64,000 nucleotides of DNA. Source: Bacteroidia bacterium. Lineage in GTDB: Bacteria; Bacteroidota; Ignavibacteria; SZUA-365. How positions within the stretch are numbered: the first letter of the stretch is position 1; each line of letters begins with the position of its first letter. This document shows, in pieces, positions 42,301-45,120 of the stretch. The notes under the pieces are model-generated. The model saw only the letters and a list, made by a program, of their open reading frames with translations. It had not been told where the DNA came from and searched no databases. The DNA is taken from positions 4,138,552 through 4,202,551 of the forward strand of contig JAOSJT010000001.1 in the NCBI GenBank assembly GCA_027493955.1, read 5' to 3'. Both the position numbers and the translations under genes were made by a program.

Positions 42301-43392
42301 ATGAGCGGCGGTGACAAGGGCGGCAAGATTCACCGCCGTGTGCAGAAGCGCAAGGATATAGAGAAACAGTGGCGTAAAGGTGAGGCGCGCTGGTCCTACG
42401 AGGGGGATGCGGAAGCGGACGAAAACAGTCTTCAGCATGTGCTCGGCGCTCCGCGGCGGCATCACCTTGTGGATACACACGGTGAGCACGAAGCCGTTGT
42501 CGTGCAAACGGGAGGGACGCATACGCTGCTGCAGGATGGGACGGTCATTCTTCGCGCCAAACCCCGCCGTTCCACCACCAGCGAGAACCGCAAAAGCACT
42601 CTCATCGCCATCGGCGACCGCGTCCGCTACCGCCCCGCGAGCGCGGATGAAGCCATCATCACGCACGTGTACGAACGCAATTCCTGGCTGCTTCGCCAGT
42701 CTATCCGTGATGCCGAGTATGCGCAGGTGCTCGTGGCGAATATCGACATGGTGGTGGTCACGACTGCGGCGACCGCCGAATTGCTTCGTCCCGGCCTCAT
42801 CGATCGTTATCTCATCGCAGCCGCCATGGGCGGGATGGACACCTGCGTGGTCGTGAATAAGATTGATTTACCGGACGAAGAAGACCGCGCGTGGGTGGAG
42901 GAAGTGGCCGCCATGTACCGCGACGCCGGGTATGAGGCGGTACTGACGAGCTGCGTGACGGGCGAGGGGATGGAAGAACTCCGGGTCGTACTGAAGGATA
43001 AACTCAGCGCGTTTTCCGGTCACAGTGGTGTTGGTAAAACCAGTATTCTCAACGAACTTCTCCCGGAGCTCCGGGAAAAAACCGCAGATCTGAGCGAGCA
43101 AAGCCAGCGCGGCATGCACACCACCACGCGCAGTACCCTGTACGCACTACCCGGCGGGGGCGCCATCGCCGACACGCCCGGCATACGCGAGTTCGGACTC
43201 TTTTATTTTGACCCCGCAGAGCTGCACAGCTACTACCCGGAGTTTGTTGCTCTCTCGCGCGACTGCCGCTTCCCCCATTGCACCCACACACATGAACCCG
43301 GCTGCGCCGTCCGCGACGCCGTAGACCGCGAAGAAATCCATCCCCTCCGCTATCGCAACTACCTCCAGATACTCGAAAGTCAGCAAGCGTAG
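42301..43392 (+). CDS. rsgA: ribosome small-subunit-dependent GTPase A
   Basis: Circularly permuted GTPase motifs (VVNKIDL ... GHSGVGKTSILN ... DTPGIREFGL) and C-terminal zinc finger CRFPHCTHTHEPGCAV. Carries a ~40-aa Lys/Arg-rich N-terminal extension. Confidence 0.85.
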   Translation: MSGGDKGGKIHRRVQKRKDIEKQWRKGEARWSYEGDAEADENSLQHVLGAPRRHHLVDTHGEHEAVVVQTGGTHTLLQDGTVILRAKPRRSTTSENRKSTLIAIGDRVRYRPASADEAIITHVYERNSWLLRQSIRDAEYAQVLVANIDMVVVTTAATAELLRPGLIDRYLIAAAMGGMDTCVVVNKIDLPDEEDRAWVEEVAAMYRDAGYEAVLTSCVTGEGMEELRVVLKDKLSAFSGHSGVGKTSILNELLPELREKTADLSEQSQRGMHTTTRSTLYALPGGGAIADTPGIREFGLFYFDPAELHSYYPEFVALSRDCRFPHCTHTHEPGCAVRDAVDREEIHPLRYRNYLQILESQQA

Positions 43393-43895
43393 CGGAGCGG
43401 AGAGCGGAGAGCGGAGAGCGGAGAGCGGAGAGCGGAGAGCGGAGAGCGGAGAGCGGAGAGCGGAGAGCGGAGAGCGGAGAGCACGTCCATAGAAGACAAG
43501 GAAATCCGCACAAGATCCTGACTCCGCTTCCTGCACGACCGTCCGACCTGCACGACCATGCTCCCCGCTCTCTGCTCTCCGCTCCTGCACAAGCGTTCGA
43601 CTCGCATGGCCGTGCTCTCTGCTCTCCGCTCCTGCACAAGCGTTCGACTCGCATGGCCGTGCTCTCTGCTCTCCGCTCCTGCACAAGCGTTCGACTCGCA
43701 TGGCCGTGCTCTCTGCTCTCCGCTCCTGCACAAGCGTTCGACTCGCATGGCCGTGCTCTCTGCTCTCCGCTCCTGCACAAGCGTTCGACTCGCATGGCCG
43801 TGCTCTCTGCTCTCCGCTCTCCGCTCCTGCACAAGCGTTCGACTCGTATGGCCGTGCTCTCTGCTCTCCGCTCCTGCACGACCATGCTCTCCGCT
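43391..43895. repeat. composite minisatellite, left copy: (GCGGAGA)x12, 85-bp linker, 47-bp unit x ~7
   Basis: Heptamer array 43391-43480. The unit gctctctgctctccgctcctgcacaagcgttcgactcgcatggccgt repeats head-to-tail with period 47 (e.g. gctcctgcac at 43581 and 43628). No spacers, and all frames are open. Confidence 0.9.
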
Positions 43896-44265
43896 ATCTT
43901 CTTCGTGACGGATTCCTGGGGATCTGCCTGTGAAACTCCAGAATCATGCGTGATAGTTCGTCGAGTTGTCCAACGAGCGGCATCATACGTTCCTGTGATG
44001 TAAGACCGATCTTTGGAATGGTCAGACACATGTTGGCTGTTTCAAAGGTTGATCGTCGTGCGATGTTCAGGAAATTGCGGAACTCATTGTTCGACAAGCT
44101 GCCGGAGCCTTCCGCGATGTTGTTTGTGATGGACAACGAGGCGGATCGAACCTGCTCAGCGAAACGATACATCCTTTGCTGATCGAGGAAATCAGCAAGG
44201 CGGAATGAACGCACAACCACATCCGTCCCCCGTTGCCAGATATCGAGATTCTGAAATCGAAACAT
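43894..44265 (-). CDS. four-helix-bundle protein (PF05635, '23S rRNA intervening sequence protein'/Avd-like family)
   Basis: 123 aa; ..FAEQVRSASLSITNNIAEGSGSLSNNEFRNFLNIARRSTFE.. matches the family signature (Q..RAa.SI..NIAEG ... iArGS..E). Local GC (~50%) is well below the window average. Confidence 0.7.
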   Translation of the reverse strand: MFRFQNLDIWQRGTDVVVRSFRLADFLDQQRMYRFAEQVRSASLSITNNIAEGSGSLSNNEFRNFLNIARRSTFETANMCLTIPKIGLTSQERMMPLVGQLDELSRMILEFHRQIPRNPSRRR

Positions 44266-44356
44266 GTCATACTCCCAAAGTGAGTGGAATGAAAAAAAAC
44301 ATCAATACCTGTGCGGTATTAACGAAATGCGTAAATCTTTCCTGGATACAAATAGA

Positions 44357-45120
44357 AGAGAGCAGAGAGCAGAGAGCAGAGAGCAGAGAGCAGAGAGCAG
44401 AGAGCACGTCCATAGAAGACCAGGAAATCCGCACAAGATCCTGACTCCGCTTCCTGCACGACCGTCCGACCTGCACGACCATGCTCCCCGCTCTCTGCTC
44501 TCCGCTCCTGCACAAGCGTTCGACTCGCATGGCCGTGCTCTCTGCTCTCCGCTCCTGCACAAGCGTTCGACTCGCATGGCCGTGCTCTCTGCTCTCCGCT
44601 CCTGCACAAGCGTTCGACTCGCATGGCCGTGCTCTCTGCTCTCCGCTCCTGCACAAGCGTTCGACTCGCATGGCCGTGCTCTCTGCTTTCCGCTCCTGCA
44701 CAAGCGTTCGACTCGCATGGCCGTGCTCTCCGCTCTCCGCTCCTGCACAAGCGTTCGACTCGTATGGCCGTGCTCTCTGCTCTCCGCTCCTGCACAAGCG
44801 TTCGACTCGCATGGCCGTGCTCTCTGCTCTCCGCTCCTGCACAAGCGTTCGACTCGCATGGCCGTGCTCTCTGCTCTCCGCTCCTGCACAAGCGTTCGAC
44901 TCGCATGGCCGTGCTCTCTGCTCTCCGCTCCTGCACAAGCGTTCGACTCGCATGGCCGTGCTCTCTGCTCTCCGCTCTCCGCTCCTGCACAAGCGTTCGA
45001 CTCGCATGGCCGTGCTCTCTGCTCTCCGCTCCTGCACCAGCATCCGACTCGCATGGTCGTGCTCTCCGCTCTCTGCTCTCCGCTCCTGCACGACCGGCCG
45101 ACCTGCACGACCGTGCTCCC
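44357..45120. repeat. composite minisatellite, right copy: (GCAGAGA)x7-8, identical 85-bp linker, 47-bp unit x ~12
   Basis: Same orientation and linker (agcacgtccatagaagac.aggaaatccgcacaagatcctgactccgcttcctgcacgaccgtccgacctgcacgaccatgctcc) as the left copy. The heptamer differs by one base (GCAGAGA vs GCGGAGA). Ends at the stop of the next minus-strand gene. Confidence 0.9.

Follow-up and report, generated by a model that had tools for sequence, protein, structure and literature searches.

How did a small, low-GC gene come to be bracketed by two long repeat blocks in the space between two convergent genes? The question is raised by a 64,000-nt stretch of contig JAOSJT010000001.1 (positions 4,138,552 to 4,202,551; hereafter the window) of the Bacteroidia bacterium assembly GCA_027493955.1, in which a gene for a 123-residue four-helix-bundle (4HB) protein lies between rsgA and a 691-aa open reading frame (ORF) of outer-membrane type. 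A first-pass annotation had read the arrangement as a cargo gene dropped into, or looped out of, a long minisatellite. We propose instead that the locus is an unusually expanded copy of a selfish hairpin cassette, in which the 4HB gene is held between inverted arms built of tandem heptamers, a reading to which we assign a probability of roughly 55%.

The features of the locus are collected in Table 1. rsgA and the outer-membrane-type gene, which is without a Pfam or NCBIfam match, form a convergent pair around the cassette, and the cassette occupies the whole gap between them, stop codon to stop codon. The first-pass annotation had placed the limits of the blocks correctly, the left one beginning at the rsgA stop and the right one finishing at the stop codon of the next gene, and its two near-identical, same-orientation blocks are confirmed as direct repeats (43435-43734 against 44358-44657, 98% identical; 43707-43859 against 44865-45017, 99% identical). 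Its counts of the 47-nt unit, about 7 on the left and about 12 on the right, agree with Tandem Repeats Finder (TRF), which returns 6.5 copies at 43567-43879 in array Y1 and 12.4 at 44490-45078 in array Y2. The twelve heptamers on the left stand as well (12.6 by TRF); the eight on the right come down to 7.1, and the linker described as identical and 85 bp long is present in both blocks, measures 84 nt in the left one and differs between them at a single position (AAGACAAGG/AAGACCAGG). Each 47-nt unit is composed of a 28-nt spacer and GCTCTCTGCTCTCCGCTCC, and four of the 12 units of Y2 differ in sequence, two of these being 54 nt long. The final, partial unit of Y1 adjoins the stop codon of the 4HB gene, and the two blocks share a terminal 22-nt motif that immediately precedes a stop codon. 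A 38-nt core of the 47-mer occurs 17 times in the 64 kb, always at this locus, as against 0 expected in shuffles, so a chance origin of the repeat is excluded. The low GC attributed to the ORF, about 50%, is likewise right (0.497, with 0.363 in its leader); the local value of about 63% with which it had been compared fits the repeat blocks, the neighbouring genes lying at about 0.61 (rsgA 0.607, outer-membrane-type gene 0.610) and the whole window at 0.581.

What had been missed is that every 47-mer includes the reverse complement of the heptamers, and that the 4HB gene runs on the minus strand. Within the unit, GCTCTCTGCTCTCCGCTCC and ATGGCCGTGCTCTC form the reverse complement of the heptamers together with the beginning of the linker: ATGGCCGTGCTCTC pairs with GAGAGCACGTCCAT at the array-linker junction, and in the 47-mers ATGGCCGTG is the partner of CACGTCCAT, with which linker 1 starts. 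Besides being direct repeats, the blocks are thus long hairpins, in which a purine-rich arm (R) is followed by a loop and by many copies of a pyrimidine-rich arm (Y). A repeat search finds inverted arms of 33 nt, 94% complementary, both inside the blocks and across the 4HB gene, and the strongest pairing in the window is inside each block, not across the gene. Folded as RNA, the 511-nt left block reaches -284 kcal/mol (z = -8.7), its heptamer array pairing with several Y copies, and the minimal upstream block of the related contig L001 gives z = -5.1. Rfam returns only sub-threshold chance matches to plant and viral microRNA hairpins over the blocks, and no family, rRNA included, at threshold over the whole window. 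In this clade, therefore, either arm of the cassette makes up a full hairpin of its own, with R array, loop and Y arm, and the overall form is hairpin-gene-hairpin.

Table 1. Features of the hairpin cassette and its two neighbouring genes, in window coordinates.
Feature	Position	Strand	Basis or remark
rsgA	stop codon TAG at 43390-43392	+	RsgA_GTPase Pfam match, E 1.4e-50
Purine-rich arm R1, (GCGGAGA/GAGCGGA) x12.6	43393..43482	+	directly 3' of rsgA stop; TRF 43395-43482, period 7, 100% match
Linker 1, 84 nt, loop of hairpin block 1	43483..43566	+	conserved in L001 and L005
Pyrimidine-rich array Y1: 5 x 47 nt, 1 x 54 nt, terminal 22-nt partial	43567..43893	+	unit table
4HB gene, 123 aa, PF05635 / TIGR02436	43894..44265	-	profile matches
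AT-rich 91-nt leader of 4HB gene, GC 0.36	44266..44356	-	GC, leader alignment
Purine-rich arm R2, (GCAGAGA/AGAGAGC) x7.1	44357..44406	+	TRF, 100% match
Linker 2, loop of hairpin block 2	44407..44489	+	one mismatch to linker 1
Pyrimidine-rich array Y2: 12 units and terminal 39 nt	44490..45122	+	unit table
691-aa ORF (outer-membrane-type gene)	stop codon 45123-45125	-	adjoins end of Y2

The protein belongs to PF05635, as had been supposed: the profile matches residues 5-108 of 123 with E 3e-25 and 88.9 bits (cut-off 33.8), and TIGR02436, "four helix bundle protein", matches with E 9.5e-24 and 83.7 bits (cut-off 24). The AlphaFold2 model (predicted local distance difference test score, pLDDT, 94.3) has four helices, and its closest structures are 2GSC (Xcc0516) and 2RLD (BT_0352), followed by Avd, with which the protein shares 11-12% sequence identity. 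PF05635 is the sole Pfam family reported for the ORF, and the bAvd family PF22296 gives no match. The exact 123-aa sequence is not on record, PADLOC finds no defence-system match and PHROGs no match for the protein, and neither tblastn against phage genomes nor a scan of viral contigs uncovers a relative; a single search gives more than 2,500 PF05635 homologues. Structures of the family have been solved, but we know of no function for it outside the Avd subunit of diversity-generating retroelements (DGRs). Avd binds nucleic acid and reverse transcriptase, and by analogy the 4HB protein probably binds nucleic acid too, perhaps the arms of its own cassette.

The heptamer arms recur with the gene family. 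We compared 80 metagenomic loci whose 4HB homologues are 46-57% identical to the window protein and which had been chosen by protein patterns alone. Oriented on the gene, most of them carry period-7 arrays on both sides: purine-rich ones upstream (GAGCAGG, GAGCATA, GGGCAGA and others) and their reverse complement immediately downstream (GCTCCCT, CTCTGCT, CTATGCT and others). The arms share the consensus GAGCANR, purine-rich on the coding strand upstream, and the window heptamers GAGCGGA and GAGCAGA rank with the most frequent words of the family. In the 50 nt next to the ORF on either side, self-match at lag 7 rises to 0.49-0.51 from a background of 0.26, with lags 6 and 8 flat. The polarity is strong, with GAGC/GCTC counts in 73 loci of 259/14 upstream and 33/234 downstream (background about 0.5 of each per 120 nt). 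Strict arrays occupy 31% of the gaps adjoining a 4HB gene and 9% of the other intergenic gaps of the same contigs, the corresponding motif densities being 2.99 and 0.84 per 100 nt, and the median distance of the arrays is 15 nt from the ATG upstream and 12 nt from the stop codon downstream. Arms also fit their own partners, pairing at -63.5 kcal/mol compared with -54.7 kcal/mol for the arms of other loci (permutation p ~2e-4).

The same arrangement extends to plasmids. Among 72,556 plasmid records the homologues are all cyanobacterial (26-34% identity), and five of the six loci examined have both arms, made of other heptamers, as in Nostoc sp. C052, (GGGAACA)4 / (TGTTCCC)7, and in Anabaena sp. 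90, where (GGTGACA)n / (CTGTCAC)n are nested; the sixth, beside a transposase gene, has the downstream arm alone. The layout of a gene between inverted heptamer arrays thus recurs from the 80 metagenomic loci to cyanobacterial plasmids, most commonly as a single R-gene-Y hairpin. Host contexts differ widely. On the Anabaena sp. 90 plasmid pANA02 (L102, 44265-44633) the 4HB gene separates cas6 from cas4 in a type I-D CRISPR-Cas locus, 18 such genes having been noted earlier in cas loci (PMC3936711), and in L060/L066 two copies stand among three sugar-nucleotide (fucosamine-type) epimerase genes and two around a sugar transferase gene after a NusG-like gene. Because inverted arrays flank the family almost everywhere we looked, the repeats belong to the module of the gene itself, which speaks against a cargo gene that entered a pre-existing minisatellite.

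That the 4HB gene is inserted DNA, as first suggested, is borne out by the relatives of the locus. Seven metagenomic contigs (L001-L007) have the same locus, with 4HB proteins 98% (P0001) or 95% (P0002) identical to that of the window, and four of them (L001-L004), from four samples, are identical over the insert. In seven uncultured Bacteroidota/Ignavibacteria-like genomes (L011 and L014-L019, RsgA 56-79% identical) the order hydrolase-RsgA-outer-membrane gene is kept with no 4HB gene, and the convergent genes lie 25-100 bp apart with a simple hairpin between them. Since rsgA and the outer-membrane gene are next to each other, with no insert, in these distant relatives, the cassette is an insertion between this convergent pair, and it is found there only in this lineage. 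The hairpin-gene-hairpin form is repeated at a different locus in L008, whose 4HB protein is 68% identical. Synteny is broken in another relative, L108 (RsgA 76%), where a 1.3-kb gene-free stretch 3' of rsgA (6100-7100) includes 3-4 copies of a ~190-nt unit (…TCGTCATCCTGAGCGAAGCGCCGCAGC…) resembling a miniature inverted-repeat transposable element (MITE), and a (CA)17 microsatellite marks the beginning of the ORF that follows (7487-7520).

The close relatives also bear on the age of the minisatellite. In L001-L007 the arrays are minimal, consisting of 2-3 heptamers, a linker and 0-4 long units, so the long minisatellite, once taken to be pre-existing, arose after insertion. The long unit is present once in L001 and as 4.1 tandem copies of a 52-nt version in L005, in both cases on the outer-membrane-gene side only, while the window has it on that side (x12.4) and on the rsgA side (x6.5); the unit has thus been amplified and copied between blocks. 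The last variant unit of Y2 and its terminal piece match the single-copy version of L001, in which the one block differs clearly from the other. Within each genome the left and right blocks have been homogenised, and they differ from one genome to another, which answers in the affirmative the earlier question whether they are recombinogenic. Array length would change by slipped-strand mispairing and unequal crossing-over, and gene conversion may have taken part in the copying of the unit.

The cassette is much less diverged than the genes on either side of it. At four-fold degenerate sites of the 4HB gene we count 0 differences in 58 between the window and L001, 8 in 55 between the window and L005, and 8 in 56 between L001 and L005. 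The same three comparisons give 85/181, 78/173 and 70/175 for rsgA, and fractions of 0.35, 0.48 and 0.40 for the outer-membrane gene. The sliding identity of gene, leader and linkers is 0.92-1.00, as against 0.77-0.87 for the flanks. A cassette whose silent sites have changed so much less than those of both flanking genes across three genomes points to recent lateral spread. Moreover, the GC of the 4HB gene is below that of host ORFs in 48 of 50 homologue loci. Silent sites, GC and wedged positions together indicate that a selfish cassette has spread laterally.

Based on these observations, we propose that the cassette may be the non-rRNA counterpart of the intervening sequences (IVSs) of 23S rRNA. 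Its arms would pair as single-stranded or cruciform DNA, or as RNA stems, and would probably be the substrate by which the cassette enters and leaves hairpin-like sites. The cassette might do so by homologous or by site-directed recombination, for instance through Campbell-type integration and through loop-out via a duplicated hairpin. The arms probably act also as insulating or processing stems, in the manner of the RNase III-cut stems of IVSs.

Several known systems resemble parts of this arrangement. The foldback (FB) transposons of eukaryotes have long inverted arms of short tandem sub-repeats, variable in length and recombinogenic, with or without an internal ORF. The cassette shares long inverted arms with them and with bacterial hairpin repeats of the MITE or repetitive extragenic palindromic type, and its arms are also variable and built of tandem sub-repeats; it has terminal inverted repeats, filled sites (the window and L001-L007) and empty sites (L011, L014-L019). 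Unlike FB elements, it yields no transposase or proof of transposition and, its empty sites being too diverged to align at the junctions, no defined target-site duplication, and its internal gene encodes a four-helix bundle without known catalytic role. Integron attC cassettes likewise place a small gene between same-orientation imperfect hairpin copies, the geometry left after integration of a circle; the present locus differs in its heptamer-array repeats and in having one cassette only, and no integrase or attC core motif was seen, though none was looked for. The 23S rRNA IVSs of Leptospira, Coxiella and Xanthomonas that carry an S23p ORF belong to the same PF05635 family, and in both systems complementary sequences border the gene: the Coxiella ORF lies in the loop of a 28-bp terminal-inverted-repeat stem that is cut by RNase III, and such IVSs are regarded as selfish and horizontally acquired (PMC4990558). 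Whereas the IVSs are found inside the 23S gene, in helix 25 or 45, the cassette lies between the protein-coding genes rsgA and the 691-aa ORF, and for arms it has tandem heptamer arrays that vary in length, developed here into two hairpins with a 47-nt minisatellite. Heptamer arrays themselves are known as the cyanobacterial short tandemly repeated repetitive (STRR) sequences and as TAACTGA arrays in Beggiatoaceae, Cyanobacteria and Bacteroidetes (MacGregor 2015, PMC4679880), a study that does not mention PF05635. Like the arrays of the window, these are intergenic tandem heptamers with several sequence families per genome and a patchy phylogeny, often a few nucleotides from a start codon, but the arrays of the cassette come as complementary pairs that bracket one gene family with fixed polarity.

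A number of observations weigh against a selfish hairpin cassette. No recombinase, transposase or reverse transcriptase is associated with it. The 47-mer core and linker occur at this locus only in the 64 kb, so that multi-copy dispersal of the element is unproven; the search for further copies that the first-pass annotation had called for gave none elsewhere in the window, and an exact-pattern scan for the linker in two public collections of genome and metagenome contigs, from which the source lineage is absent, gave 0 matches. Empty sites are too diverged (RsgA at most 79% identity) for alignment of the junctions, and no target-site duplication or exact boundary is defined. In the intermediate genome L106 (GCA_029980345.1, RsgA 83%; positions 6092-6662) about 13 GAGCAGA/GAGCGGA heptamers adjoin the rsgA stop codon and a complementary array adjoins that of the other gene, with ~400 nt between them that comprise four copies of an unrelated ~70-nt unit in place of the 4HB gene, of which a decayed copy was sought in this gap and no trace found; matching arms around a different filling could mean that the arms are landing pads and no part of an element. 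Heptamer hairpins without a 4HB gene are also present in the window and in the homologue loci. The pairing of arms is nearly the same for the sense and antisense strands (-63.5 and -62.0 kcal/mol, p = 0.19; 384 and 380 G-U pairs), and selection on an mRNA stem is thus not specifically supported. Finally, the flanks include a few short patches of 0.95-0.99 identity, and ordinary homologous recombination alone could account for the youth of the cassette. These patches, at 41950-42099, 45250-45399 and 46150-46449 in comparison with L001, are 95-99% identical within genes of ~80% identity, and suggest that these lineages often exchange DNA by homologous recombination.

The origin of the two blocks allows a more specific alternative. 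A circle made of the 4HB gene and one hairpin could have recombined with a hairpin resident at the locus, so that the hairpin was duplicated, and the reverse reaction would loop the gene out; this Campbell-type event competes with local duplication and gene conversion. Hairpin-gene-hairpin is the form expected if a circle and a resident hairpin undergo a single crossover, and in this sense a gene "looped out of" a minisatellite, as the first-pass annotation had it, is possible. The same-orientation form here and in L008, the shared 22-nt motif at the end of both blocks, the homogenisation of blocks within each genome and the single R...Y hairpin of the same heptamer type in L106 are all in keeping with such an event. 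However, the diverged blocks of L001 and its one-sided long unit imply that much of the present block identity is due to later gene conversion, the single R-gene-Y hairpin is the commoner form in the family, no integrase is seen nearby (none was specifically looked for), and neither a circle nor a solo-hairpin allele was observed in the lineage. We regard Campbell-type integration as possible, though on balance unlikely.

Regulation in cis would give the arms a different meaning. The leader of the 4HB gene keeps GGGAG 8 nt 5' of the ATG in the alignment with L001, L005 and L008. A hairpin followed by T8, resembling an intrinsic terminator, lies 35 nt 5' of the start codon (44324->44300, minus strand) and is kept in L001 and L005 with pair-preserving changes; it could serve to terminate the transcript of the outer-membrane gene upstream or to attenuate the 4HB gene. 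A scan of the leader for sigma-70 promoters gave nothing useful, the consensus being inappropriate for Bacteroidota-like organisms. If the gene were of benefit to the host and kept vertically, the arms might be paired 5' and 3' untranslated regions that control its expression, and not the ends of an element. Such a role accords with the conserved GGGAG and terminator-like hairpin, with the strong folding of the blocks as RNA, and with the Shine-Dalgarno-like GGAG repeats of the purine arm, which the pyrimidine arm mirrors as an anti-Shine-Dalgarno mimic. Polarity to the coding strand is kept though heptamers differ between clades, and arrays that in most loci are no more than 15 nt away from the ATG must share the transcript of the gene. 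On the other hand, neither pairing nor G-U content has the sense/antisense asymmetry of a regulatory RNA, the gene is missing from syntenic relatives, its silent sites are far less diverged than the flanks, its GC is below that of the host in nearly all homologue loci, and family members are wedged into operons as unrelated as cas6-cas4, polysaccharide epimerases and NusG-like/sugar transferase genes. A purely regulatory function of the arms is accordingly improbable.

The reliability of the assembly must also be considered. Copy numbers are given as assembled, and five identical 47-mers in a row (235 nt) exceed the length of short reads; the long arrays might then be over-extended or chimerically joined, the true locus having the minimal form of L001. 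Comparable arrays in L008 and L010 include scaffold gaps (runs of N), and in L009 the same 4HB gene is connected, via arrays, to another downstream neighbour. Yet the arrays are made of ordered variants (54-nt units, CGTATGG, CTTTCC and CCGCTCTCC), the independent assembly L005 has 4.1 tandem 52-nt units, and the architecture is repeated in seven independent contigs. We therefore consider an artefact quite improbable, but think it conceivable that the window is a chimera joined at repeats, which would likewise tell against the cassette. L008, L009 and L010 (6380-6800) share a 4HB gene (P0004) and a purine-rich array, which are followed by GCTCTTAG arrays and by downstream genes that differ by sample, in one a TonB-dependent receptor, in another an FtsX/MacB-type permease; these junctions are either real rearrangements at repeats or scaffolding chimeras.

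An unrelated small gene might, by coincidence, have come to rest among STRR-like heptamer arrays and hairpins that litter intergenic DNA, as they do in cyanobacteria. Gene-less heptamer arrays are indeed present in the window at 11408-11503, 26180-26502, 37156-37733 and 51955-52075, with a short GAGC-type array at 25850, lag-7 arrays are found in 9-13% of the other intergenic gaps of the homologue loci, and L106 has the arms without the gene. Against this stand the ~3.5-fold enrichment of arrays beside 4HB genes over other intergenic gaps, their near-invariant polarity, their beginning only 12-15 nt from the ends of the ORF, the span of the pattern from Bacteroidota-like metagenomic loci to cyanobacterial plasmids, and the equally low divergence of arms, linkers and gene relative to the flanks. 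Coincidence is very unlikely and, as a full explanation, largely refuted.

Least credible is a remnant or accessory of a DGR with the protein as its Avd, which we reject: both proteins are four-helix bundles, but the identity of 11-12% is low, there is no PF22296, PHROG or PADLOC match and no relative in viral contigs or phage genomes, and the check for a reverse transcriptase or template repeat proposed earlier found neither in the 64 kb, where no long ORF has a credible reverse-transcriptase motif (one of 353 aa has FVDD and no Pfam match) and no direct repeats of at least 45 nt form a template/variable-type pair.

The window is rich in other repeats. Period-7 arrays of differing units begin at 11408, 37156, 43395 and 44357 and cover 26262-26502, and in this respect the window is STRR-like. 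The array at 37156-37733 is composite and gene-less, with the architecture of the 4HB blocks and unrelated sequence: (AGTAAAG/AGTGAAG)x5.3, a ~50-nt linker and 4.6 units of 107 nt, each of which includes the reverse complement CCCTTTACCCTTTACTCTTTACCCTTCAC. It sits in an apparent gap between two coding regions. A dispersed family of (AATCCGC)n with the conserved core ATCACGCAGGCGGC..CGCCGTGCCCCTACC..GATTTCCGATTATCGA is present at 11307-11503, 26143-26502 and 28562-28666, with five sites in all, two of them joined to long (CGATTCC)n arrays. Gene-less short arrays of the GAGC type, the heptamer family of the 4HB arms, lie at 25850-25960 and 11519-11540; the former consists of GCGGAGAGCAGAGAGCAGAGAGAGC with a weakly complementary GCGCTACGCCCTCTGCGCTACG ~70 nt later, and we rejected it as a solo hairpin, as its folding does not surpass that of shuffled sequences (z = -1.5). 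A small purine/pyrimidine hairpin (GTAAAGGAAAAAGGGTAAAAAG ... CCTTTTCACCCTTTTCCCTTTTCAC) occupies 51955-52075, and a 58-nt unit (TAACGCAGCCCTTCGACTTCGCTCAGGGGCCGGCGAAGGGACGCAGAGGAGGGGAATG) is repeated 3.9 times in tandem at 60281-60512.

Tandem heptamer arrays have long been noted in cyanobacteria, Bacteroidota and Beggiatoaceae, and to our knowledge their origin has gone unexplained since about 1990. The function of PF05635, whose members are wedged into rRNA genes, cas operons and polysaccharide operons, is a second old puzzle, and the two may be one, tied together by the model of a selfish hairpin cassette. A bolder extension, which we put forward tentatively and think unlikely to hold as it stands, is that PF05635 proteins are the dedicated factor of previously unrecognised, foldback-like hairpin mobile elements that home into hairpin loops (rRNA helices 25/45, giving the classical IVSs, as well as terminator hairpins and heptamer hairpins), and that the activity or decay of these elements seeds STRR-type arrays, gene-less heptamer hairpins being their MITE-like relics. 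In the literature searched we found no published link between PF05635, S23p or four-helix-bundle genes and heptamer or STRR repeats, the gene family having been described without arrays (PMC4990558, PMC3936711, PMC10053308). For assembly and annotation, such cassettes would define a class of loci at which repeats break contigs and at which rearrangements may be real or artefactual. For the family itself, systematic bracketing by complementary arrays, together with a cassette younger than its flanks, makes the model concrete and testable, and there is a modest chance that the cassette marks a new class of hairpin-homing elements tied to the origin of STRR-type repeats.

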